Source: Myxococcota bacterium
Lineage (GTDB): Bacteria; Myxococcota_A; UBA9160; UBA6930
Reading direction: 5' to 3'
NCBI GenBank assembly: GCA_965223415.1
Contig: OZ245002.1
Coordinates: 2,016,001 to 2,080,000 of the forward strand
Length of the DNA stretch: 64,000 bases
Shown here: positions 3,012 through 61,266 of the stretch, in pieces
How positions within the stretch are numbered: position 1 is the stretch's first letter
How the letters are laid out: each line of letters starts with the position of its first letter
The notes under the pieces: model-generated
Database searches by the model: none
Told to the model about the DNA's origin: nothing
Seen by the model: the letters and a program-made list of their open reading frames with translations, nothing else
Made by a program: the position numbers and the translations under genes

Positions 3012-4718
3012 CTACTTCGCGGTCGCCGGCCCGGTGGTGCGGTTCGTGAGGACCTGCTGACCGATGCCGATCAGCGTGCTGACGAACCAGTAGAGCACCA
3101 GGCCCGATGCGAACTGGTAGAAGAGCACCGTGAACATCACGGGCATCACGGTCATCATCATGCGCTGCTGCGCCGGGTCCATGGAGCCCGACGGTGTGAG
3201 CTTCTGCTGCAGGAACATGCTCGCGCCCATCAGGATCGGGATCACGCGCACCGGCAGCTCGAGGCCAGGGATCACGAACAACGCCTCGGGGCGCGAGAGG
3301 TCGTCGATCCAGCCGACGAAGGGCTGCTGGCGAAGCTGGATCGCGCTCTGCAGGGCGAAGTAGAAGCCGATGAAGACCGGGAACTGCAGGAGCATCGGGA
3401 AGCAGCCCGACAGCATCGAGAAGGGGCTCACCCCCTCGCGCTTGTAGAGCGCCATCATCTCCTGGCTCTGCCGGTCCCGGTCGTCTTTGTACTTCTCCTG
3501 GATCTCCTTCATCTTCGGGGCGATGTCGCTCATGCGCTTCATCGACTTCATCTGCCGCGCCATCAGCGGTGCCATCAGCAGCCGCACCAGGATCGTGATG
3601 AGGATGATCGCGACGCCGTAGTTCGGCACGACGCCGTAGGCCGCCTCGAGGAGCCACGCGAAGAAGCGCGTCAGCGACGGGAACCAGCCCTTCTGGATGG
3701 CCTCGTCGAGATGGGCACCGAAGCCGTCGAGGCGCTCCTGCTCCTTCGGGCCGATGTAGATGCGGTACTCGTGGTCGATGCGCTGGCCCGGCGGGAGGTT
3801 CACCTCCTCGATGGCGACCTCGAGGAGCGCGGCGTCCTCACCGATCGGCGTCACCGTCGCGCCGGCGCGCTCCGGAACCTCGGGTGCGATGGCGGCCAGG
3901 AAGTAGGTGGTGTCCGCGGCCAACCAGTCGACACCGTTGTACTCCTTGATCTCCTCGATGCCTCCTGCGCCGAATCCGAGGAAGCTCTGGGCGGTGCGAA
4001 TGGGAAGCATCTCGACGTCGGCATCGGTGTAGAGCGCGACGGCGAAGTTCTCGAAGTCCGCACTGTCCCTGGCACGGGCGGGCCAGTGGAGGGTGAACTC
4101 CGGCTGCAGGTGACGATCGGAGCCGTTCTCGACCTCGATGCGCAGGCGCGCGCTGTAGCCGTCCTCGGCGAGGAGATAGGTCTTGCGCACGACGACGCCG
4201 GCGCGCTCGAACGTGAACACCCGGGTGTGATCGTCGGGCTCCTCGAGTCGGTAGGGGGCACGGCTCAGGTCGCCGAGGCCCAGACCCTCGAGGGGCGTGG
4301 AGAGCGCGCGCTCCTCGGGCCGCAGCGTCGTCACCTCGACGAGTGGGCGGCCCTCCTGGGAGGGATCGTCGTACTTGCGCAAGTCCCAGCGGACGAGCGT
4401 CCCGCCGTGGCTCGAGAACTCGGCCTCGAAGAGCTCGGTGGCCAGCGTCGACCGCTGCTCCGCGACCTCGGGGAGAGAGGGCTCCGCGGCGGGCGGGGGC
4501 GTAGGAGCCGGTCGAGGTGCAGGCTCGCTCGCGGTGGTCGACGCCGCCGGCGCGGACGTCGGCTCACCGGCAGCGAGCGGCTCCTCGGAGGGAGCCGGCT
4601 CTTCGGCCGCGGCCGGGTTCTCCTCGAGATACCGTTGCCTTTTCCCCTCGGTATACATCGTCCAGCTGACGATCACCGCGAAGGACAAGGTCATGGCGAG
4701 GAGGAAGTTACGATCCAT
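3012..4718 (-). CDS. yidC: Membrane protein insertase YidC
   Basis: [44 protein letters not shown] motifs. Confidence 0.97.
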
Positions 4719-4956
4719 GACGCCTGTCCCCCGCGTGCGGCACCGGATCGAAGCCACCGGCGTGGAAGGGATGGCAGCGGGTGATCCTCCGCAACGCGAG
4801 CCAGCACCCGCGAGCGGGACCGTGCTCTTCGAGGGCCGCGATGGCGTACTCGGAGCAGCTCGGTGCGAATCGGCAGCTACCTCCGAGGTGCGGCGAGAGG
4901 ACGACCTGGTAGACGCGCACGGTGAGCTGCAGGGCGTGCGTCACGAGGCGCGTCAT
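4708..4956 (-). CDS. yidD: Membrane protein insertion efficiency factor YidD
   Basis: [33 protein letters not shown]. Confidence 0.95.
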
Positions 4957-46335: not shown

Positions 46336-47373
46336 TTACCCGAGCGGCCCCTTCGACGGGCCGGTGCGCCGCTCCGCGGGCCATGGCTGCAGGTCCAGGG
46401 GGCTGCGCACTCCGAAGCCGCCGCGGTTCAGCACGTGGGTGTAGACCATCGTCGTGCTGACACTGCGGTGGCCCAGGAGCTCCTGGACCGTGCGGATATC
46501 GTGGCCGCTCTCGAGGAGGTGAGTCGCGAAGCTGTGGCGGAGGGTGTGGCAGCTGACACGCTTGGCGAGCCCCGCGCGCTGCGCCGCATTCTTCACGGCG
46601 CGCTGTACCGGCGCTTCGCTGAGATGGTGCCGTCGGTCGCCGCCGCCACGGGGATCTCGGGAGCGGCGAGCCGCAGGAAAGACCCAGAACCACGTCCAGC
46701 TCCGCGCGGCCTTCGGGAACTTTCGCGCCAATGCGTCGGGCAGGAACACGCCGGGGCGCCCGTCCGCGACGTCGCGTTCGCGGAGGACGCGCGCTGCTTC
46801 GAGCTGGGCACGCAACGGCTCCACCAGCGCATCGGGCAGCATCGTCCTGCGATCGCGGCGGCCCTTGCCGTCCCTCACCAGGACCTCGCGGCGAGCGAAG
46901 TCCAGATCCTTCACGCGGAGACGCAGTGCCTCGAGCAGCCTGAGGCCCGAGCCGTAGAGCAACCCAGCGACGAGGGAGGAAGTGCCCGTGAGCTCCGCCA
47001 GCAGCGCCTGCGTCTCGCTGACGCTGAGGACGACCGGGAGGCGGCGCGGCTTGCGGGCGCGAACCGGAGCGAGGCTGCCGAGATCACGCCCCAGGACCTC
47101 GCGGTAGAGGAACAGCAGGGCGCCAAGCGCCTGGTTCTGCGTGGACGGCGCCACGTCTTGCTCGACGGCGAGCCACGTGAGGAACGCCGACACCTCGGCG
47201 GCACCCATGTCCGCGGGGTGACGCGTCCCCTGATGGAGGATGAAGCGCCGGATCCACCCGACGTACGCCTCTTCCGTCCGGAGGCTGTAGCCGCGAACCC
47301 GGATCGCGTCCCGAACCTGATCGAGCAACCGCGGCGGCTGCCCTTCTCCCCGTTCCGGGGAGCGTTTCGGCAT
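46336..47373 (-). CDS. intI: Integron integrase (tyrosine recombinase)
   Basis: [21 protein letters not shown], IntI-specific insertion [32 protein letters not shown]; divergent cassette array. Confidence 0.97.
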
Positions 47374-47680: not shown

Positions 47681-48406
47681 ATGAAGCGAGACTTCATCAT
47701 TTCCGAGATCAAGCGCACAGCCTCCGACAACGACGGGGTCCCTCTCGGCCAGCGCGCCTTCGCCACCACAACGGGGATCCGCAGGCACGACTGGTATGGG
47801 CGTTTCTGGCCGAACTGGAGCGCCGCGCTCTCAGACGCCGGTTTCGAGCCCAACGTCTGGCAGGACAAGATTCCCGAAGACCTCCTGCTCGAGAAACTCG
47901 TCGAACTCATCTCTGAACTCGACAAATTCCCCACCGACGCGGAGCTTCGGCAAAAACGACGCGAGAATCCGAGCTTTCCAAGCCACAGCACCATGCATCG
48001 GCTCGGTCCCAGAGCCGAAAGGGCTCGGCGAATCATCGACTACTGCTCGACCGACGAGGACCTCTCCACGGTTGTAGCTATCTGCACCTCCATCGCTGAG
48101 CAAGCAGTCCCGCCGGCCAATGTGCCCGCCGACCCCAGCGAAGCTGAAGAGTTCGGAACCGTCTACCTCATCAAATCCGGACGTCATTACAAAGTCGGAA
48201 GAACCAATGCATTTGGGCGTCGCGAGCGCGAAATCGAGCTCCAGCTTCCCGATAAGGCGCAGACGGTTCATACCATCACCACGGACGATCCTGTCGGAAT
48301 CGAAGCCTACTGGCACCGCCGATTCGCCGATCGTCGCAAGAACGGAGAGTGGTTCGAGCTGTCGCCCGAAGACATTCGAGCCTTCAAGAGGCGAACCTTC
48401 ATGTAG
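47681..48406 (+). CDS. Cassette 1: GIY-YIG-like (T5orf172/MUG113-type) nuclease with N-terminal helical repeats
   Basis: GTVYLIKSGRHYKVGRT, IEAYWHRRF..RKNGEWFEL; WPNWSAALSDAG repeat; more AT-rich codons than the core genes. Confidence 0.8.
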   Translation: MKRDFIISEIKRTASDNDGVPLGQRAFATTTGIRRHDWYGRFWPNWSAALSDAGFEPNVWQDKIPEDLLLEKLVELISELDKFPTDAELRQKRRENPSFPSHSTMHRLGPRAERARRIIDYCSTDEDLSTVVAICTSIAEQAVPPANVPADPSEAEEFGTVYLIKSGRHYKVGRTNAFGRREREIELQLPDKAQTVHTITTDDPVGIEAYWHRRFADRRKNGEWFELSPEDIRAFKRRTFM

Positions 48407-48414
48407 CGCCTGCC

Positions 48415-48550
48415 GCCCAACAAGGCGCTGCAGCTGACGAGCCACAGCTCGTTCCAATCGACCCGTGGTAGTGTTTGGCATCGAATTTGGAAGCTTCGAG
48501 CGGGCTGCAGAGGCGCTGTGGCTCGCAGCTGAGCGCCAGGTCCGTTAGCC
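48415..48550 (+). other. attC site 1 (R' end interrupted by IS1380 and IS110)
   Basis: R'' GCCCAAC; arms GCGCT(G)CAGCTG(A)CGAGCCACAGC / GCTGTGGCTCGCAGCTGAGCGC with extrahelical bases; R' GTTAG at 48544. Confidence 0.92.
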
Positions 48551-50073
48551 CTGATCCGGCATTGCGAGGTGTAGGGAAAGCCCGGAATTGAAAGTGGCTC
48601 CGTCGGTGTGCTTGATGGAAGTGCCAACCACCATCATGCCTCCGAGGAGCCACATTCGTGAAGCTAAGCAGACACCGGATTCGAGCCCGCGTCAAGGGCG
48701 AATTGTCGATCGCCTTCACGGATGAGGCGCTGACGAGCTACGGCGGGCTGGAGCTGTTCCGGCGCTTCTTCGACCGCTTTTGGGCAGAGCGCCTGAAAGC
48801 GGCCTTTGCGGATCGGGCGTTCGACTCGGACTACGGATCCTTCCGCTGCATGCTGGTGGTGGTGGGGATGCTGCTGCTGGGAGGGAGCCGTCTCTCGCAT
48901 GTCCGGGTGCTCGATCGGGATCCGTTGTTTCGGCGGTTCGTCCGATTGCAGCGGCTTCCGGACGAGCGGACCCTGGCGAGGAACCTGAAGGAGCTGACGT
49001 CGGGCTACCGCGATCGTCTGAACGAACTGCTGCGGGACATGGCCTATGGAACCCACACAGGGCTCGGCTTGGAGCGGGCCACGATCGAGCTGGACGGCAC
49101 CGTGCTTCGGACGGGCGAGTACGTGGACGGCGCCGAGCGCGGCTTCAACCCACATCACCCGAAGGACCCGTCCTACTACCCGCTGACGGCGCACCTGGCG
49201 CAGACGAGCCAGCTGCTCGGCGTATGGAACCGGCCGGGCAATGTGAACGATGCGGTGGGCGCTGCGGAGAAGCTGGCCTTTCTCCTGGGCGACGCGAAGC
49301 GGCGCCTCGATCGGGTCCCGATCGAGGTGCGGCTCGATGGCGCCTTCTTCCAGAAGGCCGTTCTCGAGGTTCTCACGGCCTCTCGCGTGGAGTACGCCCT
49401 CAAGGTCCCCATGTGGCGCTGGCTCGGCGTGCGTGAGAAGATCGCCGCCCGGAAGCGTTGGCACCGCGTCAACGCGAGCGTCGACGCCTTCTCCGTCGTC
49501 CACCGGATCCCACAGTGGAAGCGCTGCGAGCGGATCGTGGTGTTCCGCAAGAAGGTCTCCGGGCGAAGCGCGAAGAACTTCCAGCTCGACCTCTTCACCC
49601 CGGACGATGGCCACTACGAGTACTCGATGGTCGCGACGAACAAGCGGACCAGCGAGGCCGCCGTCTGGGCCTTCATGGCCGGACGCGGCGGCCACGAGAA
49701 GACGCTGGCCGAGCTCAAACAGCACCTGGCGTTCGCCACCATCCCGACCCAGGACTGGGACGCCAACAGCAACTGGCAGCTGCTCAGTGCCCTGACCCAC
49801 AACCTGGTGCGGGACTTCCAAGCCACGCTTGGCCTGCCAGAGCGACCCAACGGCCGAAAGCGGACCGCCCGGCTCCGCTTCCCCTCGCTCCGCACGCTCC
49901 GCTTCGAGCTGATCCAGCTCCCTGGCCGCATCGCTCGGCCTGCCGGACGCGCTTCGCTCCGAATCGCCGCGTCCTCGCGCAGCCGCTCCACCATCCGGGC
50001 CGCCGAGACCGCGCTCGCCGCGTGAGCCCGCCAGACCTACGCTCGGATCCGTGATCTCAATGCCGGATCAGGG
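48549..50073 (+). mobile_element. IS1380-family insertion sequence
   Basis: 16-bp TIR CCCTGATCCGGCATTG / CAATGCCGGATCAGGG; 4-bp TSD TTAG. Confidence 0.92.
48658..50025 (+). CDS. IS1380-family DDE transposase
   Basis: LTSYGGL, ELDGT, NRPGN, VRLDGAF, GRGGHEKTLAELK. Confidence 0.9.
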   Translation: MKLSRHRIRARVKGELSIAFTDEALTSYGGLELFRRFFDRFWAERLKAAFADRAFDSDYGSFRCMLVVVGMLLLGGSRLSHVRVLDRDPLFRRFVRLQRLPDERTLARNLKELTSGYRDRLNELLRDMAYGTHTGLGLERATIELDGTVLRTGEYVDGAERGFNPHHPKDPSYYPLTAHLAQTSQLLGVWNRPGNVNDAVGAAEKLAFLLGDAKRRLDRVPIEVRLDGAFFQKAVLEVLTASRVEYALKVPMWRWLGVREKIAARKRWHRVNASVDAFSVVHRIPQWKRCERIVVFRKKVSGRSAKNFQLDLFTPDDGHYEYSMVATNKRTSEAAVWAFMAGRGGHEKTLAELKQHLAFATIPTQDWDANSNWQLLSALTHNLVRDFQATLGLPERPNGRKRTARLRFPSLRTLRFELIQLPGRIARPAGRASLRIAASSRSRSTIRAAETALAA

Positions 50074-50092
50074 TTAGATACTCCCTTCGTCG

Positions 50093-51088
50093 TCAACCCT
50101 TCGTGGCGAAGAATTTCTCGCCAAGGAAGTCCTGGTCGTGGCGGAGCATGCCGTAGATGGCGTGGAGCAGCTTCCGCATGACGGCGACGAGTGCTTGCAT
50201 CTTGGTTTTGCCCTTGGAGAGCAGCTTCTCGTAGAAGGCCTTCACGTTCGGTTCCCAGCGTGCAGCGACCATCGCAGGAAGAAAGAGTGCGCGGCGAAGG
50301 TGGGCGTTGCCGGTCTTGCTGATGCGAGCTGGCTTGTGCACAGAGGTGCCCGATTGAAACTGTCGGGGGTCGAGGCCCGCATGCGCGACCCATTGCCGGG
50401 TCGTCATGTCCTTGGGCAAGGTGCCTAGCTCGGCGAGCAACTGGATGCCGGCTGCGTCGGCGATACCCTTGATCGATGTGATGTGGCCGAAGTCTCTGGC
50501 GAGCTCGGGGCTCTGCTCGATCACCTTCAACGCTTGCTTGCGCAGCCGATCGATTCGCCCCTCCAGGAGCTCGATCAGTTCGCGGATGTCTTGCTTCACG
50601 AACTCACTGAGCTCCTCGCTCTGGTCGTTGGCATGGAGCCGGTTCTTCTCCTGCGTCACGGTCTTGCTCAGAGCCTCCACGCGGCGGGAGAGGGCCCGTA
50701 CCTCCAGAATTCGGGGGTCCGGCGGAGTCCAGGCGGAAAACTCCATGCGCATTCCGAACTCGAGAATCGTTTCCGCATCGAGCGCATCCGTCTTGGAGCG
50801 TTGAAGCGATGCCTTGGCGAACGCGGCAATGGCCCGCGGGTTCGCCACCATCACCTGGGACGCCTTCGCACGGTGAAGCGCGAACGCGAGGTCGAGGCCG
50901 TACACCCCGGTCGATTCCAGGACGACGCGCGCCGTCGCATTCCCCTTCGTGGCCCACCGAATCAGCCTCTGGTGGCCCTTGGGATCGTTCGCAAAGACCA
51001 GCCCGCCCTCGCGAGTTCCGTTCCGGTCGATGGCGACGACGAGCTCCTTCGCCCCGACGTCCACGCCCACGTAATGACACTTCTTCAA
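50093..51088 (-). CDS. IS110 DEDD recombinase
   Basis: VGVDVG, VLESTG, KTDALDA, FQSGTS, ISKTGNAHLRRAL, AVMRKL; TTG start after GGAGGAG. Confidence 0.95.
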   Translation of the reverse strand: MKKCHYVGVDVGAKELVVAIDRNGTREGGLVFANDPKGHQRLIRWATKGNATARVVLESTGVYGLDLAFALHRAKASQVMVANPRAIAAFAKASLQRSKTDALDAETILEFGMRMEFSAWTPPDPRILEVRALSRRVEALSKTVTQEKNRLHANDQSEELSEFVKQDIRELIELLEGRIDRLRKQALKVIEQSPELARDFGHITSIKGIADAAGIQLLAELGTLPKDMTTRQWVAHAGLDPRQFQSGTSVHKPARISKTGNAHLRRALFLPAMVAARWEPNVKAFYEKLLSKGKTKMQALVAVMRKLLHAIYGMLRHDQDFLGEKFFATKG

Positions 51089-51099
51089 GGTCTCTCCTC

Positions 51100-51300
51100 C
51101 CCGTGATAAGCTGGGACCCGGGTCTCCCGACCCTGCACATTCACCTACGGACCTTGTAGACGCAGGCTCTCGGGCCTCGGATACTCCACGGCATGGGTGA
51201 CGAGGGCGGGAGGCCCATCTAACGGACAAGCTCTCTGGCTTCAGGCAGCGACGGCCTTTCCCGGGAACCCATCTCGGAGTCTCACTCAGGCCCGAAGAGC
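51100..51300 (-). ncRNA. Predicted bridge RNA (boundaries approximate)
   Basis: Contains guides matching target (GCUGCCU, GUCCGUUAG) and donor (GGAGUAUC, UACAAG), each pair separated by a short hairpin. Confidence 0.85.
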
Positions 51301-51324
51301 CTGCTCAGAGGTACAAGGCGGCTC

Positions 51325-51711
51325 ATGCGGAGTTCGTTGCTTGCACTTGCGGTTCTGCTGACGGCTTGTAGCGATCCTTGGGAGTGCAAACTCGACCTCC
51401 GAGAACAGCTATCGGAGATCTCCACAACGGAGGTGCGTCTCCGCGACGTCACCGATTTCGATTGGACCACGGTGAGCGTCTTCGGCCCTTACACTCCCGG
51501 CGAGGAGATTAGGAAGCTCGGCGTCACCTATGAACCATCTCCCCTGGGGTTCGATCACGTACCTGAGTCTGCTGCCGAGCTCGTCTTCCTAAGCGAGGAT
51601 CAGCCGGTCTGTCGGCATACATGGTTTCACCATGACTCACGATACAGCTTCCGTGCCTGGGAAGAGTTCGATCCAACAGATCCCGTCTTGGTTCCCTATC
51701 GAACTCCCTAA
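51325..51711 (+). CDS. Cassette 2: hypothetical lipoprotein
   Basis: Lipobox LTAC, DFDWTTVSVFGPY; cassette ends GTTAGGCGGC (reconstructed) / GCCGCCTAAC are complementary. Confidence 0.8.
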   Translation: MRSSLLALAVLLTACSDPWECKLDLREQLSEISTTEVRLRDVTDFDWTTVSVFGPYTPGEEIRKLGVTYEPSPLGFDHVPESAAELVFLSEDQPVCRHTWFHHDSRYSFRAWEEFDPTDPVLVPYRTP

Positions 51712-52343
51712 GCATCTGAACGATCCGGCTGATGGTTGACAGAAGTCCAGGTACATCCTTTACACGCCTGTGATCGTTCCGGTTCGCTGATCGTACCTTC
51801 CGAGGAGGGTGCGGTAGTAGATGATGTTCCAGAGCCCGTCGCCGATCTCTTCGAGTCCGATGGTCTCGCCGGCCAGGGCATGGGAGAGAAACGGCAGCCG
51901 GGGCTGCATGCGGAAGGTGCCGGCGTTGTTGACGCGTCGCACCTCGAGGTGGGCCGGATACTCGGGCTCGGGGAGACTCTCTGGGTAGCTGCGCTTGGCC
52001 GGGCTCCAGAGCTCGTCCGGGACCTGATCGCCGATGCCTTCGTGGGGCCGCTCGGCGTTGTAGCGGTCGCGAAAGCGGTCGAAGCGCCGCTGCTGGGATC
52101 GTCGGGTGGCTGCCGGAGGCCGAGCCGTCTCCTTCTTCAGCTCGCGGTGCATCCGTTCGTGAGCTCCGTTCTCCTGCGGGCTCGCGGGTCGGATCCGTTG
52201 GTGGACGATGCCGAGCTTCATCCACCAGACGTTCAGCTCGCAGAGGCCGTGGATGCCGGTTGTCGCAGGACGTGATATTCGAGGGCTAAGAGGACACGTA
52301 GATTTGCGCACCTCCTGTTGAGCCGCTGCGCGGCACGTTCCCC

Positions 52344-53630
52344 GTGAGGGAGGGGGGCGTGGGGCAGCGGCGACTGAGGCAGGAGGAAGTGATGACGATC
52401 GAAGTGCTGCACGAGCGGGGGTGCTCGAACCGGGAGATCGCCCGCCAGCTGGGGATCCGGGAGAGCGCGGTGCGCTACCGGCTGAAGCGGCTGGCGGAGG
52501 GGGCGCGAGACGGCCGGAGCGGGAAGCCCTTCCTGGCCGAGGCGGTCCACGAGGTGATCGCGGAGTGGCTGGAGGCGAGCTCGGGAGGCCGTGGCGTGAA
52601 CCTGCAGGAGCTTCACGAGTTCCTGGTGGAGGAGCACGGGTACACGGGGAGCTCCAAGAGCGTGCAGCGGTACGTGCGGGCCCGGTTCCCGAGACCGAAG
52701 GTGCGGAGCCGGCGTCGGGTGGAGACACCGCCCGGGGCGCAGGGTCAGGTGGACTGGGGCGAGTTTCCGGGCGTGCGGATCGGGGGCCAGGAGGTGGACC
52801 TGCATGCCTTCCACCTGGTGCTCTCGCACTCGCGGCGAGAAGCGGTGGTGTGGTCGGAGCGGGCGGACACGCTGGCGTGGCTGGACGTGCACAACCGGGC
52901 CTTCGAGCGGCTGGGCGGGGTGCCGGCGGTGCTGCGGGTCGACAACGTGAAGACAGCGGTGGCGAAGGGGGCGGGGCCATGGGGGACGGTGAACCCGGCT
53001 TACGCGAGCTATGCCGGGGCCCTTCGCTTCCACGTGGACGCCACCCGTCCCCGCCAGCCGCAGGAGAAGGGGAAGGTGGAGCGTCGGATCCTGGGGCACC
53101 GGCGGGGCTTCGATCCGCGTCGGCGGGAGCACGAGAGCCTGGAGTCGCTGCAAGCGTGGACGGACGGCCAGGTGGCGCGCTCGAGCCACCGGCGGCAGTG
53201 CCCGGCGACGGGCACGACGGTCTTCCAGGCGTGGGAGGCGGAGAAGCCCCATCTCGGGGCCCTGCCCGAGCGGCTTCCCGAGCCCTTCGACCTGGCCGTG
53301 ATGCGACGTGTCGGGCGCGACGCCACGGTGCGCTTCGAGGGGCGTACCTACAGCGTCCCCTTCCGCTTCGTCGAGCAGAGCGTCGAGGTGCGCGGCTGCG
53401 CCCGGCAGGTGCAGGTCTGGGCCGAGGGCTCGGTGGTGGCCGCGCACCCGCGCCACACGCGAAGCCGCCTGCTGCTGGACCCGAGCCACTACGAGGGGCC
53501 GAGCACGGAGGGGGTGGAGGCGCCCGTACCGCTCGGGCGCATGGGTCGACGCCTCCAGGAGCTGTGGGCGATGGAGCCGGAGCAGCGGCCGATCGACCTC
53601 TATGCCGATCTGGCGGAGGTGGCGCGATGA
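52344..53630 (+). CDS. istA: IS21 transposase IstA
   Basis: ETPPGAQGQVDWG, VDNVKT, EKGKVER, YSVP. Confidence 0.92.
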   Translation: MREGGVGQRRLRQEEVMTIEVLHERGCSNREIARQLGIRESAVRYRLKRLAEGARDGRSGKPFLAEAVHEVIAEWLEASSGGRGVNLQELHEFLVEEHGYTGSSKSVQRYVRARFPRPKVRSRRRVETPPGAQGQVDWGEFPGVRIGGQEVDLHAFHLVLSHSRREAVVWSERADTLAWLDVHNRAFERLGGVPAVLRVDNVKTAVAKGAGPWGTVNPAYASYAGALRFHVDATRPRQPQEKGKVERRILGHRRGFDPRRREHESLESLQAWTDGQVARSSHRRQCPATGTTVFQAWEAEKPHLGALPERLPEPFDLAVMRRVGRDATVRFEGRTYSVPFRFVEQSVEVRGCARQVQVWAEGSVVAAHPRHTRSRLLLDPSHYEGPSTEGVEAPVPLGRMGRRLQELWAMEPEQRPIDLYADLAEVAR

Positions 53631-54427
53631 CGGCGGGAAACCCGGTGCCCAAGAAGGGCGGCAAGGTGGATCTCGACCCGACCCGCGAGCGGCTCGTGCG
53701 CCTCGGCCTCCATCACGCGGCCGAGCACATCGGCGAGGAGCTGGCCCGAGCGACCAAGGACGACCTCGTGCCCCACCGCTTCCTCGACCTGCTGCTCGAG
53801 GCCGAGCTGCAGCACCGCGAGGAGCGGAGGATGAAGACCTCGCTCCGTCTCTCGGGCCTTCCCACGGGGCAGACCCTCGGCAACTTCGACTTCGCCTTCC
53901 AGCCGAGTGTGGAGCGGAGCCGGATCGAGACGCTGGGCACCTGCGCGTGGATCCGGGCCAAGGAGAGTCTGCTGATCCAGGGTCCGCCGGGAGTGGGCAA
54001 GACCCACCTGGCGGTGGCCCTGGGGGTGCGGGCCGTGGAGAACGGCTTCTCCGTGGCCTTCCATCGCCTCGAGGACCTGCTGGCGGCCCTCAAGCGCGAC
54101 GCCGAGATCAGCCCGCAACGGCTGCGGCGGCGCAAGCACATGAACGTGGCGCTCCTCGTCATCGACGAGGTCGGCTTCGAGCCCATGACGCGCCAGGAGG
54201 CGAGCCTCTTCTTCCGGCTCGTCTCCTACCGCTATGGGAGGGGCTCGATCCTGATCACCACGAACAAGGGCATCGCCGACTGGCCCGAGGTGCTGGCGGG
54301 CGACGAGGTGCTGGCCACCGCCATCCTCGATCGCCTCCTCCACCACAGCCAGGTGCTCAACATCTCGGGGCGGAGCTACCGGCTCCGCGAGCTCGAGCAG
54401 GCCGCGGGGCAAAGCGCCCAGCGTTGA
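53627..54427 (+). CDS. istB: IS21 helper ATPase IstB
   Basis: FDFAFQP, GPPGVGKT, IDEVG, ILDRLLHH, GRSYR. Confidence 0.93.
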   Translation: MTAGNPVPKKGGKVDLDPTRERLVRLGLHHAAEHIGEELARATKDDLVPHRFLDLLLEAELQHREERRMKTSLRLSGLPTGQTLGNFDFAFQPSVERSRIETLGTCAWIRAKESLLIQGPPGVGKTHLAVALGVRAVENGFSVAFHRLEDLLAALKRDAEISPQRLRRRKHMNVALLVIDEVGFEPMTRQEASLFFRLVSYRYGRGSILITTNKGIADWPEVLAGDEVLATAILDRLLHHSQVLNISGRSYRLRELEQAAGQSAQR

Positions 54428-55339
54428 GGCCCCAGAGGGCGGCCTGACGGCCGTGCTCTCCTTCGGAGAGCGGAAGAGAAGAAGGAAGAACCGAACATCA
54501 ACCCAGGGGGGTGCGCAAAACTAGCCGTCCTCTTAGCGCGCAAGAGATGACGTCCCTCGACACCGGTCGAGGCGAAGGGCGCACCGTTGTCGCTGCGGAT
54601 CGCCTCGGGAAGCCCGACCTCGCGGAACAGCCGTCGGAAGACGGGCTTCGCATGCTCCGTCCTCACGGAGGGCAGCCCTCGGCACACGAGGAGCTTCCGG
54701 CTGAAGTGGTCGGTCACCGTGAGCGGGTAGCAGTAGACGCCTGTCGAGGGACGTCATCTCTTGTGCGAAACTGGCCCTTGAAGTCGACGGGCCAGACCTC
54801 GTTCGGCCGCTCCGTCTGGAGCGGGGCGGCACCCGGATGGTCCCACTTCCGCCGCCGGCGGTTCTTGCGCAGCTTCCCGTGGCGATCGAGGATCGCGTTG
54901 ATCGTGCTCTGGGCCGGCAGCGCTCTTCGCGGGTGCCGCCGGGCCAGCACCAGGCGAAGCTTCTTCGCCCCCCAGCCGTACTGGGCCCGAAGCGCCAGGA
55001 CCTCCCGCTCCACGGCCTCGGGCGTCCGATGCGGGCAGCTCCTGGGCCTTCGCGAGCGCTCCTCGAGGCCCTCGCCCGCCTCGGCCCGCTCGAGCCACTT
55101 GTAGCCCGTGGGCCGGCTGACCCCGTAGCGCTCGCAGAGCTCCTTCATCCCCCACTGGCCGCTCGCATGATCGGCCACGAAGGCCTTCCGCTGTTCCGTC
55201 CGATTCGTTTGCATCCAAGGCATCCCTGGGTGTAAACGATGTACCCGGACTTCTGTAAACCATGTCCCCGGACCGTACCGTCCGCCGCCTAACCAGCGGC
55301 TGCAGCTGACCCGTTTAGGGAGTGTCAACTCCAATGATC

Positions 55340-55550
55340 GCGAAGCACGTGTGGGTCTTGGTGGTGTCCTCCAACGGAATCGGCTTGCGTCCCTGCGGGT
55401 TCGGGTTCAGTCCAAACGCGTTGTCGGCCTCGTGGGCTCAATGAGGGGTTCGGGGCGACGGTGGTGAATCGGGGCCAAGGGCTCATGGGCCGCAGTCAGC
55501 TGCCCGCCTACCGTCTTCGTTGGAACACAAGCGAGAAGGGGTCCTGGGGG
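55340..55550 (-). ncRNA. Predicted seek/bridge RNA of the IS1111-like element (also ~59920-60130)
   Basis: Contains GCAGCUGAC, identical to the attC sequence immediately at the insertion point. Confidence 0.65.
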
Positions 55551-55557
55551 AGCGGGG

Positions 55558-56607
55558 CTACGCCATGCCAAGGCACCTCCGGAGATCGAAGGCCTCGCCG
55601 CGGGTGAGCGTGACCCAGACGCTGACGAGGAGTCTGCGAGCCAAGGCCATGCGGACCTTGTTCTTGTGGACGCGGGTCCGCATCGTCTTCGCCCAGGCAC
55701 GAACCAACGGGTCGTCCTTCATCAGGCGAACCGCCCATTGGCTGACGATCCAGCGGAGCTCGGCCTGGCCTTGGCGGGTCATGCGGCCGTGGTGGGCGTG
55801 GTCGGCTGACTGGTTCACCTTGGGGGTGAAGCCGGCGAAGGCCGAGACCGCACGGGGGCCTCGGAATCGGTGCGGGTCGCCGATCTCGGCGAGCAGCGTG
55901 GCAGCCGATTGCGTCCCGATGCTCGGGAGCTCCTGCTCGAGGGCCTGGACGTCGGGATCCTCTCGCCCGATCCGTCGGATCTCCCGATCGAGAGCCAGCA
56001 CCTGGCCCTGCAGGCTATCGAGCACCTGGAGCAGGGCCTTGAAGGCGGTCTGCATCTCCAGGGTCGGCAGGGTGACGGTGCGGAGCTTCTCCCGGCTCGG
56101 CTTGGTATAGAGCGCGCTCGTGGGAGCGGGAATCCGGTAGGCGTTCAGGAAGCCCCGGAGCTGGTTCACGGCCTGTTGGCGCATCTGGACGAGGCGGTGG
56201 CGGACCCGAAGGAGCTTCCTCCTCCCGTACTCCTCGTCGCTCGGGTAGTAGGTCGTTGCCACCCGATCCAGATCACCGAGCCAGAGCCGGCGTGCAATCT
56301 CGGCTGCATCTCGCCGGTCCGTCTTCTTGCCGAGCTTCTTCAGGTCGAGCTTGCGCGGATCACAGACCAGAACGTCGAGCTGCGCCTCTCGGCAGGCGTT
56401 GACGAACCACCGGTTGAGGCCCAACGCCTCGACGGCTACGCGGCAATGGGGTCCGAAGAACTTCAGCCGCTCCACGACCCCGAGGCCCTGTTCAAGGCTC
56501 TCGGAGCGGATCCTCTCCTCGGCGATCTTCTCACCCCGCGCATCCAGCACGCAGATCTGGATCACGGTGCGATGCAAGTCGATCCCAGCGAAGTACTCTG
56601 TCGTCAT
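55558..56607 (-). CDS. IS110/IS1111 DEDD recombinase
   Basis: GIDLH, VEALG, KTDRRDA, NQSAD, ALARRL; same 349-aa protein as 60139-61188. Confidence 0.92.
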   Translation of the reverse strand: MTTEYFAGIDLHRTVIQICVLDARGEKIAEERIRSESLEQGLGVVERLKFFGPHCRVAVEALGLNRWFVNACREAQLDVLVCDPRKLDLKKLGKKTDRRDAAEIARRLWLGDLDRVATTYYPSDEEYGRRKLLRVRHRLVQMRQQAVNQLRGFLNAYRIPAPTSALYTKPSREKLRTVTLPTLEMQTAFKALLQVLDSLQGQVLALDREIRRIGREDPDVQALEQELPSIGTQSAATLLAEIGDPHRFRGPRAVSAFAGFTPKVNQSADHAHHGRMTRQGQAELRWIVSQWAVRLMKDDPLVRAWAKTMRTRVHKNKVRMALARRLLVSVWVTLTRGEAFDLRRCLGMA

Positions 56608-56765
56608 GGTCAGTCTCCTTGGGGAGTGTTTGTTGGAACACAGCCAAGGTGGCTGTTCCTCGGTGGACACCCAAAACCGGCCATAGAAGGACGTCTGAAA
56701 AGCGGCCATAGGGGCTGACGCCCAGGACGTTGACGACGGCGAGGGACCTGCGATCCCCCGCCGCC

Positions 56766-58355
56766 ATGGCGAACCTTCTGGGCAACGAGAAACGCGAGCA
56801 GATTCTGGCACTTGGCCGCCTCGGCTGGTCGCTTCGGCGGATCGAGGAGGCGACGGGCGTGCGCCGGGAGACGGCGAGCCGTTACCTCCGGGCCGCGGGG
56901 ATCGCGGTGCGATCTCCTGGTCGCTGGGGGCACGGGGCCCCAAACCCGGCCATAGAGGCGTCCACCGACTCGAAGGCCCCGGCAAAAGCGGCCAAAGAGG
57001 CGTCCACCGATCCGGCCTGGCCGCCGATGCCGGGCCGGAGCCCCCAGGCCAGCGCCTGCGAGCCCTACCGCGAGTGGATCGAGGCGGGCGTGCGCCAGGG
57101 CCGGACGGCGATGGCGATCTGGCAGGACCTAGTCGATGACCACGGCTTCGCCTTCAGCTATGCGAGTGTGAAGCGCTTCGTGGCGAAGCAGCGAGCCGCG
57201 GCGCCGCGCGAGGCGCACCCGGTGATCGAGACGGCACCGGGAGAAGAGGGCCAGGTCGACTACGGCGACGGGCCGATGGTGCGGCATCCCGGGTCGGGGA
57301 AGTACCGGCGCACGAGGCTGTTCGTCTTCACCCTGGGCTACAGCCGCAAGTGCGTTCGGCTGCTCGTGTGGAAGTCGAGCAGCCAGGTCTGGTCGGAGCT
57401 GCACGAGAAGGCCTTCCGCCGGCTGGGCGGTGCACCGCGCACCGTCGTCCTCGACAACCTCAAGGAGGGCGTTCTCAAGCCCGACGTCTACGACCCCGCG
57501 CTCAACCCCCTCTACCGCGATGTGCTCGCCCACTACGGCGTGACGGCGCTTCCGTGCCGGGTGCGCCACCCCGATCGCAAGGGGAAGGTCGAGTCCGGGG
57601 TGCGCCACGCGCAGCAGAAGGTCCGCGGGATGCGCTTCGAGTCGCTCGAGCAGGCCCAGGCCTACCTCGACCGCTGGGAGCGCCGATGGGCCGACACCCG
57701 CATCCACGGCACGACCAAGCGCCAGGTGGCGGCGATGTACGAAGAGGAGAAGCCGCACCTGCTCGGGCTTCCCATCGAGCCCTTCCGCTACTACCAGCAC
57801 GGCGAGCGCACGGTGCACCTCGACGGGGCCATCGAGGTGGAGGGGGCCTACTACCACGCGCCGCCGGGCTGGCTGGGGCGGCGGGTGGCCGTCCAATGGG
57901 ACGGGCTGCGGGTGCGGATGCTCGATCTGCAGACGGGGGAGCTGCTGCGCGAGCACGTCCGCCAGAGGCGGGGGCGCCGCAGGATGCGGGAGGAGGACCG
58001 CCCGAAGCGGACGCCGGCCACGACCCTCCAGCTGCTCGCGCGGGCCCGGCGCGCCGGCGTCCACGTGGGCGAGGTGTGTGAGGCGATCCATCGCCTGGAC
58101 GGCGAGCCCGGGGTGCGTCGCATCCTGGGCGTGCTCTCCCTGTGCAAGCGCCACGGCATCCCTCGCGTCGACGATGCCTGCGCCACCGCCCTGGCCCTCG
58201 AGCTGCCCACCTACGCGTTCGTCAAGCGCTACCTGGAGCGTCAGCCCGAGCTGCCGCTCTCGCTCAAGCAGGTGGACCCGCTCATCCGCCAGCTCACCCA
58301 CTACCGCGATCTCATCGATCGCCGCACCGAGGAGACCTCTCGTGAATCTGACTGA
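56766..58355 (+). CDS. istA: IS21 transposase IstA
   Basis: ETAPGEEGQVDYG, LDNLKEG, DRKGKVESG, RIHGTT. Confidence 0.92.
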   Translation: MANLLGNEKREQILALGRLGWSLRRIEEATGVRRETASRYLRAAGIAVRSPGRWGHGAPNPAIEASTDSKAPAKAAKEASTDPAWPPMPGRSPQASACEPYREWIEAGVRQGRTAMAIWQDLVDDHGFAFSYASVKRFVAKQRAAAPREAHPVIETAPGEEGQVDYGDGPMVRHPGSGKYRRTRLFVFTLGYSRKCVRLLVWKSSSQVWSELHEKAFRRLGGAPRTVVLDNLKEGVLKPDVYDPALNPLYRDVLAHYGVTALPCRVRHPDRKGKVESGVRHAQQKVRGMRFESLEQAQAYLDRWERRWADTRIHGTTKRQVAAMYEEEKPHLLGLPIEPFRYYQHGERTVHLDGAIEVEGAYYHAPPGWLGRRVAVQWDGLRVRMLDLQTGELLREHVRQRRGRRRMREEDRPKRTPATTLQLLARARRAGVHVGEVCEAIHRLDGEPGVRRILGVLSLCKRHGIPRVDDACATALALELPTYAFVKRYLERQPELPLSLKQVDPLIRQLTHYRDLIDRRTEETSRESD

Positions 58356-59103
58356 ACTCGATCCCGCACTGCGCAAGCTCCGGCTCTCGGGCATGGCCGA
58401 GCATCTGGAGATGCGGCTCCTCGAAGCCCAGAAGGGCGAGTGGGCGGCCATCGACCTGCTCTCGGCGCTCGTCCAGGACGAGCTCGAGCGCCGGCAGGAC
58501 CGACTGCTGGCCCGGCGCATCAAGCAGGCCCGCTTCCGCGACGCCAACCGGACCCTCAACGGCTTCGACTTCCGCTTCAATACGAAGATCGATCGCGCCC
58601 TGGTCTTCGAGCTCGCCACGGGCCGCTTCCTCGAGCAAGCCGAGGACGCTGTCTTCCTCGGCCCGCCGGGCACGGGCAAGAGCCATCTCGCCCAGGCGAT
58701 CGGCCTCGCCGTCATCCACCAGGGCCATCGCGTCGCCTACCGCGAGGTCCACGTCCTCCTCGAGGAACTCGCTGATGCGACCCTCGACGGCACCCGCAAG
58801 GAGTACCTGGCCGAGATCGCGAGAGTGCCGCTGCTCATCCTCGACGACCTCGGCATGCGCAAGCTCCCCACCACGGCCGCCGAGGACCTCCTCGAGCTGA
58901 TCATGCGCCGCTACGAGCGCACCAGCACCCTCGTCACCTCGAACCGACCCGTCGACGACTGGGGCCGGCTCCTCGGCGACACGGCAGCCGTCACCGCCAT
59001 GCTCGACCGCCTCCTCCACCACGGCCACCTGCTCAAGTGCGGACCCCGCAGCTGGCGCACCAAGAAGACCACCGCCTTGCCGAAGGAGGCCCCGGCGCGG
59101 TAG
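58342..59103 (+). CDS. istB: IS21 helper ATPase IstB
   Basis: FDFRFN, GPPGTGKS, LDDLG, MLDRLLHH, PRSWR. Confidence 0.93.
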   Translation: MNLTELDPALRKLRLSGMAEHLEMRLLEAQKGEWAAIDLLSALVQDELERRQDRLLARRIKQARFRDANRTLNGFDFRFNTKIDRALVFELATGRFLEQAEDAVFLGPPGTGKSHLAQAIGLAVIHQGHRVAYREVHVLLEELADATLDGTRKEYLAEIARVPLLILDDLGMRKLPTTAAEDLLELIMRRYERTSTLVTSNRPVDDWGRLLGDTAAVTAMLDRLLHHGHLLKCGPRSWRTKKTTALPKEAPAR

Positions 59104-59318
59104 AACCCCTCTGTCCTGGGCGCGGCCCTTTGGCCGCCTTTGAGACGTCCACCTTTGGCCGGTTTTCAGACGTCCACCGAGGGCTGTTCTCCAAGGAGCT
59201 GACCTCCCTATACCCTCCGGGCACCCGCGCGTTCCAACCGGGGCGTGGTACCCTTAGGGTTCCACTCAGGCGCCTCAGCGAGCCTCGGGGCCGGCCCGGC
59301 AGCTGAGCCGCCTGTCCG

Positions 59319-59540
59319 TTAGGCGGCGTTGGGCTTCCAGCGCATGGATGGCCGCTTCTTCGTGCGAGCGCACTCGCCGAGATAGAGATTGATCAGTGTT
59401 TGGTACGGGATGTCCGTCTCTTCCGACAGCTCACGGAAGTACGCGAGCGTCTCCTCGTCCAGACGAATTGTGATCTGCTTCTTCAGTCGCCTGGCGTACG
59501 GGTTCCTCTTTCCCTTCGAGAAGTCGTAGTTCTTTCTCAT
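59319..59540 (-). CDS. brnA: Cassette 3: BrnA-family antitoxin
   Basis: MRKNYDFSKG, KKQITIRLD, PYQTLINLYL. Confidence 0.88.
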   Translation of the reverse strand: MRKNYDFSKGKRNPYARRLKKQITIRLDEETLAYFRELSEETDIPYQTLINLYLGECARTKKRPSMRWKPNAA

Positions 59541-59827
59541 CGCTTCCACCGCCTCTCGTAGTCTCGTCTCTCGGCCCTGTTGGCGCGCCGCGCCGAGATG
59601 ACGCGAATCACGTGGTCTTCCTCTCGGTAGCAGTGGCAAACCACCAGGGCCCGGAGTGCAGCCGAAAGCCCAATCATCACGAAGCGGTCCTCGGCTTCAT
59701 CCGGGTCCTCGATCAAGATCGCAGCTTCGTCGTAGAAGACCGTCCGCGCTTCCTCGAACGAAACACCGTGTTTCTTCTGATTGGCCTTGTCCTTCTTCGG
59801 GTCCCAGTCGAAGTCGATATCGGCCAT
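59537..59827 (-). CDS. brnT: Cassette 3: BrnT-family toxin
   Basis: FDWDPKKDKANQKKHGVSFEEA, EDRF, IRVISARRA. Confidence 0.92.
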   Translation of the reverse strand: MADIDFDWDPKKDKANQKKHGVSFEEARTVFYDEAAILIEDPDEAEDRFVMIGLSAALRALVVCHCYREEDHVIRVISARRANRAERRDYERRWKR

Positions 59828-59835
59828 CCGACCCT

Positions 59836-59863: not shown

Positions 59864-59892
59864 CGCCGCCTAACCAGCGGCTGCAGCTGACC

Positions 59893-61266
59893 CGTTTAGG
59901 GAGTGTCAACTCCAATGATCGCGAAGCACGTGTGGGTCTTGGTGGTGTCCTCCAACGGAATCGGCTTGCGTCCCTGCGGGTTCGGGTTCAGTCCAAACGC
60001 GTTGTCGGCCTCGTGGGCTCAATGAGGGGTTCGGGGCGACGGTGGTGAATCGGGGCCAAGGGCTCATGGGCCGCAGTCAGCTGCCCGCCTACCGTCTTCG
60101 TTGGAACACAAGCGAGAAGGGGTCCTGGGGGAGCGGGGCTACGCCATGCCAAGGCACCTCCGGAGATCGAAGGCCTCGCCGCGGGTGAGCGTGACCCAGA
60201 CGCTGACGAGGAGTCTGCGAGCCAAGGCCATGCGGACCTTGTTCTTGTGGACGCGGGTCCGCATCGTCTTCGCCCAGGCACGAACCAACGGGTCGTCCTT
60301 CATCAGGCGAACCGCCCATTGGCTGACGATCCAGCGGAGCTCGGCCTGGCCTTGGCGGGTCATGCGGCCGTGGTGGGCGTGGTCGGCTGACTGGTTCACC
60401 TTGGGGGTGAAGCCGGCGAAGGCCGAGACCGCACGGGGGCCTCGGAATCGGTGCGGGTCGCCGATCTCGGCGAGCAGCGTGGCAGCCGATTGCGTCCCGA
60501 TGCTCGGGAGCTCCTGCTCGAGGGCCTGGACGTCGGGATCCTCTCGCCCGATCCGTCGGATCTCCCGATCGAGAGCCAGCACCTGGCCCTGCAGGCTATC
60601 GAGCACCTGGAGCAGGGCCTTGAAGGCGGTCTGCATCTCCAGGGTCGGCAGGGTGACGGTGCGGAGCTTCTCCCGGCTCGGCTTGGTATAGAGCGCGCTC
60701 GTGGGAGCGGGAATCCGGTAGGCGTTCAGGAAGCCCCGGAGCTGGTTCACGGCCTGTTGGCGCATCTGGACGAGGCGGTGGCGGACCCGAAGGAGCTTCC
60801 TCCTCCCGTACTCCTCGTCGCTCGGGTAGTAGGTCGTTGCCACCCGATCCAGATCACCGAGCCAGAGCCGGCGTGCAATCTCGGCTGCATCTCGCCGGTC
60901 CGTCTTCTTGCCGAGCTTCTTCAGGTCGAGCTTGCGCGGATCACAGACCAGAACGTCGAGCTGCGCCTCTCGGCAGGCGTTGACGAACCACCGGTTGAGG
61001 CCCAACGCCTCGACGGCTACGCGGCAATGGGGTCCGAAGAACTTCAGCCGCTCCACGACCCCGAGGCCCTGTTCAAGGCTCTCGGAGCGGATCCTCTCCT
61101 CGGCGATCTTCTCACCCCGCGCATCCAGCACGCAGATCTGGATCACGGTGCGATGCAAGTCGATCCCAGCGAAGTACTCTGTCGTCATGGTCAGTCTCCT
61201 TGGGGAGTGTTTGTTGGAACACAGCCAAGGTGGCTGTTCTCCAAGGAGCTGACCTCCCTATACCCT
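59893..61266 (-). mobile_element. IS1111-like element, copy 2 (intact, 1374 bp)
   Basis: Appears identical to copy 1 without the IS21; same insertion point in attC. Confidence 0.92.
60139..61188 (-). CDS. IS110/IS1111 DEDD recombinase
   Basis: Same protein as 55558-56607. Confidence 0.92.
   Translation of the reverse strand: MTTEYFAGIDLHRTVIQICVLDARGEKIAEERIRSESLEQGLGVVERLKFFGPHCRVAVEALGLNRWFVNACREAQLDVLVCDPRKLDLKKLGKKTDRRDAAEIARRLWLGDLDRVATTYYPSDEEYGRRKLLRVRHRLVQMRQQAVNQLRGFLNAYRIPAPTSALYTKPSREKLRTVTLPTLEMQTAFKALLQVLDSLQGQVLALDREIRRIGREDPDVQALEQELPSIGTQSAATLLAEIGDPHRFRGPRAVSAFAGFTPKVNQSADHAHHGRMTRQGQAELRWIVSQWAVRLMKDDPLVRAWAKTMRTRVHKNKVRMALARRLLVSVWVTLTRGEAFDLRRCLGMA

Follow-up and report, generated by a model that had tools for sequence, protein, structure and literature searches.

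An insertion sequence (IS) of the IS110 group was found within the 3' end of an integron attC site in a 64,000-nucleotide stretch of DNA from a Myxococcota bacterium (the window; assembly GCA_965223415.1, contig OZ245002.1, positions 2,016,001 to 2,080,000 of the forward strand, numbered here from 1). The non-coding end upstream of its recombinase gene carries guide segments that match both halves of this site and both ends of the element, and in the relatives the guides vary together with the flanking sequences. It is highly probable that positions 50078-51315 are a genuine IS110-group insertion sequence of the IS621/ISCro4 type with a bridge RNA aimed at attC. The IS621-type bridge mechanism is already known, as is attC as a target class of the IS1111 sister group; what appears to be new is a widespread environmental IS110-group lineage aimed at the R' end of attC.

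The element and its attC target

The features that define the element and its site are the following.

50078-51315, minus strand: IS110-group insertion sequence of 1,238 bp, to which one CT core is added
50093-51088, minus strand: DEDD/Ser bridge recombinase gene, 331 aa, TTG start behind GGAGGAGAG, frame intact
51316-51324, minus strand: CT core (51317-51316) and left target GAGCCGC
48540-48548, plus strand: R' end of attC1, which is the right target as read on the cassette strand (GTCCGTT-AG)
About 48407-48548 plus 51318 onwards: attC1, a reconstructed 157-nt site
59314-59327, plus strand: unoccupied exact target GTCCGTTAGGCGGC, 0 mismatches, the R' end of the second attC
46336-47373, minus strand: integron integrase IntI (TIGR02249 449.7 bits, cut-off 265; Pfam PF00589 and PF13495)
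48549-50073, plus strand: IS1380-family element with 19-nt inverted ends, at the right-end junction of the IS110-group element
48658-50025: IS1380 transposase (Pfam PF13701; NCBIfam IS1380 211 bits, cut-off 180)

The IS1380-family element is flanked by a TTAG duplication (48545-48548 and 50074-50077) and now parts the IS110-group element from the right target at 48540-48548. When the IS1380-family element and one TTAG were removed, GTCCGTTAG was joined to ATACTCC, and on the minus strand the junctions read GAGCCGC-CT-TGTACC at the left and GGAGTAT-CT-AACGGAC at the right. These are the junctions, at the same coordinates, that the original prediction had derived. Its span of 50078-51324 was right at one end only: the element ends at 51315, and the core and left target flank make up 51316-51324. 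Both junctions carry CT, and it alone is common to the element and its flanks. The empty site at 59314-59327 carries the CT core once, and therefore the core dinucleotide is the only shared sequence. The AG of the TTAG duplication coincides with the presumed bridge-recombination core. The left target is the start of the next cassette, the ATG of which lies at 51325.

The non-coding end upstream of the recombinase gene is 227 nt long, and the downstream end is 14 nt. No exact inverted repeat of at least 7 nt, terminal or subterminal, was found between the first and last 80 nt, imperfect repeats not having been searched exhaustively, and no second copy of the left end was found in the window. 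The target 14-mer has one further exact occurrence in the 64 kb, at 59314-59327. With up to three mismatches allowed there were 16 matches in the window against 13.5 expected, so that only the exact match is meaningful.

The interrupted sequence is the 3' inverse core GTTAGGC (R') of the attC of the first cassette, beside IntI, which is divergent from the cassette array starting near 47681. The inverse cores of attC have the consensus RYYYAAC (R'') and GTTRRRY (R'), and attC sites are imperfect palindromes whose hairpins pair R'' with R' and L'' with L'. Bases 4-5 of GTTAGGC are the core AG, and the element runs antisense to the cassettes. In attC1, the R'' core GCCCAAC lies at about 48414-48420 and the R' core GTTAGGC is restored by the reconstruction. 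Both strands of the reconstructed site refolded as a long imperfect hairpin in which R'' (GCCGCCCAAC) is paired with R' (GTTAGGCGGC), with GCCGCC.AAC paired to GTT.GGCGGC and a long inner stem. The proposal that the R' box of an attC had been hit was thus confirmed by the interrupted core, the hairpin and the position of the first cassette next to a TIGR02249 integrase.

Further attC ends were located in the array at 55284, 59314, 59865 and 61446. The R'' boxes at 55284 and 59865 (GCCGCCTAACCAGC) are like the target in the left half, the core and AAC, and the R''-type counterpart of the target is GCTGGTTAGGCGGC. The difference amounts to 3 of 14 positions, at right-flank positions 4-6 after the core, where R' reads AACGGAC and the array R'' boxes read AACCAGC. 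No element was found at the corresponding position of the two R'' boxes in the window that carry GCCGCCTAAC.

The recombinase matched both domains of the group, Pfam PF01548 (92.2 bits, cut-off 29; 3.8e-26) and PF02371 (73.8 bits, cut-off 21.3; 1.5e-20), and the NCBIfam model NF033542, 'IS110 family RNA-guided transposase' (218.1 bits, cut-off 140). Its best relatives in the PDB were ISCro4 (9t56, 4e-49) and IS621 (8wt6, 2e-46), and the assignment to the IS110 group made in the original prediction is therefore supported. Identity to plasmid-borne IS621 copies is about 36%, so that 'IS621-like' means the same group and not close kin. A tblastn search of plasmids gave no relatives above 50% identity, which argues against a link to clinical plasmids. 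Residues D10, E58, D101, D104, S246 and S249, which we take to include the catalytic residues, are invariant or nearly so in 29 relatives and align with ISCro4; all columns that are invariant across the 29 are kept in this protein. A large protein database held 5,487 relatives at E<=0.001, the best being 87% identical. The best relatives were mostly on contigs of 1-3 kb, as expected of a repeated element that breaks assemblies, and no ISfinder-style names were found among the 120 relatives listed.

Guides, fold and flanks in the relatives

All four guide segments and both hairpins were found at the positions originally predicted, reading 5' to 3' on the minus strand.

51115-51277, minus strand: bridge RNA core (target-binding and donor-binding loops), from the consensus fold of 42 sequences
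51243-51249, minus strand: left target guide GCUGCCU, in the sense of the target top strand GCCGCCT
51241-51238 and 51231-51228, minus strand: target-loop hairpin AAGC/GCUU
51219-51227, minus strand: right target guide GUCCGUUAG, reverse complement of CT-AACGGAC (9/9)
51180-51187, minus strand: left donor guide GGAGUAUC, 8/8 with GGAGTAT of the right end plus the C of the core
51177-51174 and 51167-51164, minus strand: donor-loop hairpin AGGC/GCCU
51153-51160, minus strand: right donor guide UCUACAAG, of which UACAAG (51158-51153) is the reverse complement of CT-TGTA (6/6)

The left target guide forms pairs with the target's bottom strand at 6 of 7 positions plus one G-U wobble. The CT-TGTA matched by the right donor guide is the core followed by the left end of the element.

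Since a single-sequence fold was uninformative and Rfam returned nothing, the upstream regions of relatives were aligned instead (alignment A2, 42 non-identical sequences with that of the window included). These regions are strikingly conserved except at the guide positions. RNAalifold gave 20 pairs, 11 of them with compensatory changes. The structure that was tested comprised 31 pairs, namely those of RNAalifold and the small hairpin of the target loop; 92.0% of its cells were paired as against 85.4% in shuffles, and double-change cells numbered 98 as against 33.2 (0 of 500 shuffles). When the 3' partner was slid by 1-3 columns, pairing fell to 18-60%. The seven helices retained (helices 2-8) were 86.9-100% paired. 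A long-range helix closing both loops (columns 17-22 with 204-209) was only 67% paired and was dropped from the model.

In the comparative fold, the internal loop that holds both target guides is bounded by the outer stem GGCC/GGCC and the hairpin AAGC/GCUU (helices 2 and 3), and the one that holds both donor guides by a covarying stem and the hairpin AGGC/GCCU (helices 7 and 8). A covariance model, R1, was built from A2 and searched over the window and an annotated IS621 copy (L080). The RNA in the window scored 166.4 bits, but that sequence had helped to build the model. R1 also matched the donor-binding loop of IS621, directly 5' of the IS621 gene (L080 518-588, 13.6 bits, E 0.015), and aligned the left donor guide GGAGUAUC to ACAGUAUC and the right donor guide UCUACAAG to UUUGCAAG. 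The claimed bridge-RNA layout is thus upheld by guides lying in two internal loops of a fold with covariation and by the correct placement of the IS621 donor loop. Furthermore, the IS621 donor that the original prediction had quoted, ACAGTAT-CT-TGTAT, is that of the annotated copy.

Guides and flanks were then compared across the family, in a scan of one genome per species that gave 460 relatives, of which 79 loci were kept. For the right arm, guide and flank could be extracted in 65 of 80 rows, or 43 unique pairs. The right target guide matched its own flank at a mean of 7.05 of 9 positions as against 4.62 in shuffled pairings, with none of 2000 shuffles as good. Agreement by position was 1.0, 0.98, 0.98, 0.98, 0.95, 0.84, 0.63, 0.35 and 0.35; given that the right flanks are diverse at positions 3-7, this points to approximately seven effective guide positions. 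The left arm was tested in 46 rows (45 unique), 34 having been skipped, including nine Latescibacterota copies with a miscalled left end. There the mean was 6.11 of 9 as against 4.55 in shuffles, again with none of 2000 as good.

Some relatives are re-targeted with their guides, as in L048 (CTATGTAAC, 9/9) and L033 (CTTCGGGAC, 9/9) and also in L037 and L045. In one genome, the same left guide occurs in GCTGCCT (L022) and GCCGCCT (L023, L061) sites. In the L005 array, GCCGC-AT-AACGGAT is the sequence of the free attC sites, and the sublineage has AU in place of CU at the end of its left guide. The co-variation of guides with attC flanks in homologous copies that the original prediction had called for was thus seen in both arms and in this change of core.

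The AT-core sublineage consists of L004, L005, L007 and L013, in which the free sites have an AT core and the left guide ends in AU while the right guide still ends in AG. In L005 the element is at 3658-4893 and the array copies are at 2391, 5558, 6031 and 6630. Its occupied site has AT at the left junction and CT at the right, and hence the donor and target cores differ, each junction keeping a different one. In a separate case, L009 (3778-5011), with guides identical to those of L011, the left half ATAGGCT matches at 3 of 9 positions and the right half at 8 of 9, and a free site identical to the occupied one lies in the same array at L009:7871. To judge from these sequences, the L009 insertion looks driven by the right half alone; the term 'half-match recombination' figures in the title of a 2026 preprint.

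The attC context recurs in the family. The right flank is CTAAC, CCAAC or CTGAC in 31 of 79 loci. Among the 30 loci with enough flank, the first 24 nt (up to 6 mismatches) recur on the same strand in 18, at 450-2,900-bp spacing and in up to 8 copies, and on the opposite strand in none. The array copies that are unoccupied number 46 in 18 loci, and 15 of these match both guides at a minimum of 6 of 7 positions. A 12-mer inverse-core partner within 220 nt starts with GTT and scores 7-11 of 12 at attC-type loci; loci not of attC type also reach 9-10 of 12, so that this partner does not discriminate by itself and served as one of three supports only. IntI homologues were found within 4 kb of 4 of the 79 loci, full length in L010 and L022 (60-61% identity), partial at a contig end in L005 and as fragments in L036. 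In L010 (2791-3756) and L022 (6819-7760) the IntI homologue has its 3' end towards the attC array, whereas in the window and L005 it is divergent; integrase and cassettes running in one direction are presumably the 'inverted integrase' arrangement of the literature.

A FastTree phylogeny of 58 proteins, from which 11 loci with frameshifts or partial matches were left out and in which 12 identical rows were collapsed, placed the protein of the window in a supported clade of seven rows (98). Six of these rows are attC-supported and one is cut by a contig end. Targets of attC type occur in at least four other clades, the deep branch order being unresolved by FastTree. By the labels of their metagenome-assembled genomes, the hosts of the lineage are Myxococcota/Deltaproteobacteria, beta proteobacteria/Casimicrobiaceae, Acidobacteriota, Spirochaetales and Gemmatimonadota. 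Other branches (L014-L018, L031-L032, L067-L075) lie in different short repeats, with right flanks CTGTCC.., CTTCAGGG and CTCCCGTCT, and have left non-coding ends of 320-390 nt. The CTCCCGTCT repeat has 9 copies in one Latescibacterota chromosome.

Proposed mechanism and alternative explanations

In the mechanism proposed here, a bridge RNA would be encoded by the 5' non-coding end and have two internal loops. One of them, the donor-binding loop (GGAGUAUC ... UACAAG), would recognise the joined ends of the element, GGAGTAT-CT-TGTACC, and the other, the target-binding loop (GCUGCCU ... GUCCGUUAG), would recognise GCCGC-CT-AACGGAC. The latter is the bottom-strand sequence of CCGTT-AG-GCGGC, the attC 3' end with the R' core GTTAGGC. 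Strand exchange by the DEDD/Ser recombinase would take place at the CT core, and a bottom-strand target with exchange at CT would leave the element antisense to the cassettes and inside R'. IntI cuts attC at the G|TT point, and the insertion point would lie two bases 3' of this cut. With about seven effective positions in its right guide, the element could tell R' (AACGGAC) from R'' (AACCAGC); the long right target guide would thus supply this discrimination. The IS110-group insertion probably came before that of the IS1380-family element, which would then have hit TTAG at the right junction. That insertion is RNA-guided is suggested by homology to IS621, for which RNA guidance has been shown (PMC11208160, Durrant et al. 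2024).

Several observations weigh against this interpretation. The single-sequence fold of the 233-nt end (51090-51322) did not show the bridge layout, the guides being paired, and its stability was unremarkable (z -1.13; 31 of 200 shuffles fold as well). The guides are placed in loops by the 42-sequence consensus, and support for the predicted bridge-RNA structure comes from the comparative fold only. No matching Rfam family was found at the gathering score in the whole window or at E<=10 in 51050-51350; Rfam seems to be without a matching bridge-RNA family, which makes this null result uninformative either way. The R1 match to IS621 covers the donor loop only, with the target loop unaligned and a rough E-value. 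The left target guide pairs at only 7 of the 9 positions that IS621 employs, the wobble included and positions 1-2 mismatched, and left-flank fits were poor (3/9 each) in L009, L020 and L038, part of which may reflect miscalled ends. Additionally, 8 of the 58 tree rows ('CTAAC_only') had no array, integrase or inverse-core partner by the criteria used. An orientation test by open frames and third-codon-position G+C content (GC3) in 20 relatives was crude, noisy and suggestive only, with opposite-strand frames that, in about 12 of the 19 loci with a left flank, extend to no more than 2 nt from the left end and that, in about 14 of 20, start on the right at 56-240 nt past the right end. Finally, the window holds one copy and one free exact site, the IS1380-family element parts the right end from its flank, and the predicted promoter across the joined ends (TTGACG, 17 nt, TACCTC) has a poor -10; this copy may be stranded.

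The possibility was considered that the complementarity of guide and flank is coincidental and that the protein alone picks the target. The unremarkable single-sequence fold would fit this view. However, guides and flanks co-vary across the family in both arms, as no shuffle reproduced, and the guides occupy loops that are homologous, by the R1 match, to those of the RNA-guided IS621 (PMC11208160). Coincidence is thus extremely improbable. A broader reading is that the lineage targets any GC-rich palindromic repeat, attC being incidental, with no preference for R' over R'' or for integrons. Copies of the same family in Acidobacteriota and Latescibacterota do lie in repeats of the TTCCACAG or CCCGTCT type that are not attC, the eight CTAAC-flank rows lack array evidence, and the R'' boxes of the array are only 3 of 14 positions away from the target. 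However, the flank repeats recur with cassette-like spacing on one strand only, a pattern that would not arise if both arms of a palindrome were used at random. Moreover, IntI lies beside four relative loci and the array of the window, the two R'' boxes with GCCGCCTAAC are unoccupied, and in 84% and 63% of the 43 pairs the flank is matched at right-guide positions 6 and 7, those that tell R' and R'' apart here. A generic palindrome target is therefore judged to have little chance of being the explanation.

A bridge RNA aimed at the R' end of attC is also compatible with the element being what it seems and this copy being a stranded fossil, whose guide match records a past event only. The IS1380-family element between the right end and the CTAACGGAC flank has left 4 nt of flank, the copy is single in 64 kb, and an exact free target 8 kb off is unused. 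The promoter pattern TTGAC(N)-17 nt-TAxxxx, from the right end into the left end, was found in 39 of the 42 unique end pairs that remained once 11 loci with miscalled ends had been dropped, and the -10 is TATATT, TATATC or TATCTT in 28 of the 42, which makes TACCTC weak by comparison. However, TACCTC is common to L002, L003 and L006 and is thus a lineage trait and not decay of this copy. Furthermore, the recombinase frame is intact with every invariant column kept, and both donor halves and all four guides are intact. The fossil reading is a realistic possibility, though we lean away from it.

A more far-reaching proposal is that the lineage, as one aimed at R', is specialised on the cassette junction, with guides co-evolving with R' variants, and that IntI could mobilise the element together with a cassette. 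In such a scheme CU-ending guides would belong to GTTAGGC arrays and AU-ending guides to GTTATGC arrays. AT is contributed by the conserved right end, so that the upstream attC would keep a consensus-compatible R' (GTTAGAT fits GTTRRRY). The insertion sequence would become the first part of the downstream cassette, and IntI could excise and re-insert 'IS plus cassette' as a unit. We regard this proposal as unlikely. If true, it would provide a second, integrase-driven route between integrons and hosts and would help to explain the spread over several phyla.

The known mechanism of bridge recombination is unchanged by the finding. The lineage would be a natural, clade-wide case of bridge-RNA programming against the functional recombination site of another mobile system. 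For integron biology, it would represent a parasite of the cassette junction itself, which could block or ride on excision in sedentary chromosomal integrons. For work on bridge recombinases, it is a source of dozens of natural guide/target pairs in which the right target guide is long, and with these the specificity between near-identical sites such as R' and R'' could be studied.

Neighbouring elements and comparison with known systems

The array of the window also contains a second DEDD element in two copies that are 100% identical.

About 55310-56658 and about 59891-61239: second DEDD element, genes 55558.. and 60139-61188, minus strand

Identity between the copies extends over 55283-56658, which an IS21 interrupts, and 59864-61239, and takes in 27 nt of attC flank in each. 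The element was inserted after GCCGCCTAACCAGCGGCTGCAGCTGACC, in the 5' part of two attC sites and antisense to the cassettes, and its non-coding end of about 250 nt is downstream of the gene. Its protein is an IS110-family transposase by Pfam and NF033542 (205 bits), with only a local 26% match to the recombinase at 50093-51088. The best plasmid-borne relative is only about 31% identical, so that this element and the clinical IS1111-attC elements are not close kin.

Nested elements pervade the first three cassettes (about 51730-55270, 52264-54560 and 56659-59190, boundaries by eye). A broken rve-type transposase frame runs from 51760 to 52263 and resumes after 54560, with an IS21-type pair (52344-53630, 53308-54447) inside it, and a second IS21 (56730-58355 with IstB at 58078-59103) lies inside copy A of the second DEDD element. 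In the third cassette there appear to be two short genes (59336-59830, minus strand), oriented against the array.

The open-access papers and preprints searched, a search that does not extend to ISfinder or supplementary tables, yielded nothing on an IS110-group element at R', and integrons go unmentioned in a 2026 preprint on the expansion of IS110. It is possible that attC R' sites are already among the natural targets listed by Durrant et al.

The closest characterised systems are IS621 and ISCro4, with which the element shares the two protein domains, a non-coding end upstream of the gene and a CT core. The donor is nearly the same (ACAGTAT-CT-TGTATT in IS621, GGAGTAT-CT-TGTACC here). According to PMC11208160, IS621 also has the same guide order (left target guide, hairpin, right target guide, left donor guide, hairpin, right donor guide), a left target guide in the sense of the top strand, a right target guide complementary to it and a promoter across the joined ends, the putative counterpart of which has a weak -10 here. 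The two differ in the protein (about 36% identity), in the target loop, which R1 could not align, and in the left guide, which pairs at 7 of 9 positions here. The right target guide is 9 nt with about seven effective positions, whereas a four-base guide was analysed for IS621; longer right target guides in other IS110 orthologues are already noted in the same paper (PMC11208160). The IS621 copy L080 sits in ATCAGGC-CT-ACGT, whereas the present element sits in the R' end of attC.

Group IIC-attC introns also home to the antisense strand of attC, near its 5' end (PMC3001079). They are retro-elements with a ribozyme and a reverse transcriptase and have no relation to this element in sequence or mechanism.

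The IS1111-attC elements (ISPa21, ISPst6, ISKpn4) are reportedly treated by Tetu and Holmes in 2008 and by Post and Hall in 2009. They resemble the present element in having a DEDD transposase and an RNA-guided site in attC, in antisense orientation (PMC3001079; PMC11187229, Siddiquee et al. 2024). Their seekRNA is encoded downstream of the gene (PMC11187229), whereas only 14 nt follow the stop codon here and the guide RNA is upstream; a long non-coding region upstream rather than downstream is the criterion for the IS110 group in that paper. Their inverted repeats are subterminal (PMC11187229), in contrast to the lack of any inverted repeat of at least 7 nt near the ends of this element. They insert near the 5' end of attC (PMC3001079), as the IS1111 group also does according to a Shewanella survey and a plant-microbiome survey, whereas the site here is the 3' R' core GTT-AG-GC. 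The separation from the IS1111 type made in the original prediction therefore stands, given the upstream non-coding end and the insertion in R', with the second DEDD element displaying the opposite arrangement. If so, two branches of DEDD transposases would each have taken attC as a target on their own, one at either end of the site, and in this window both are found in one array.

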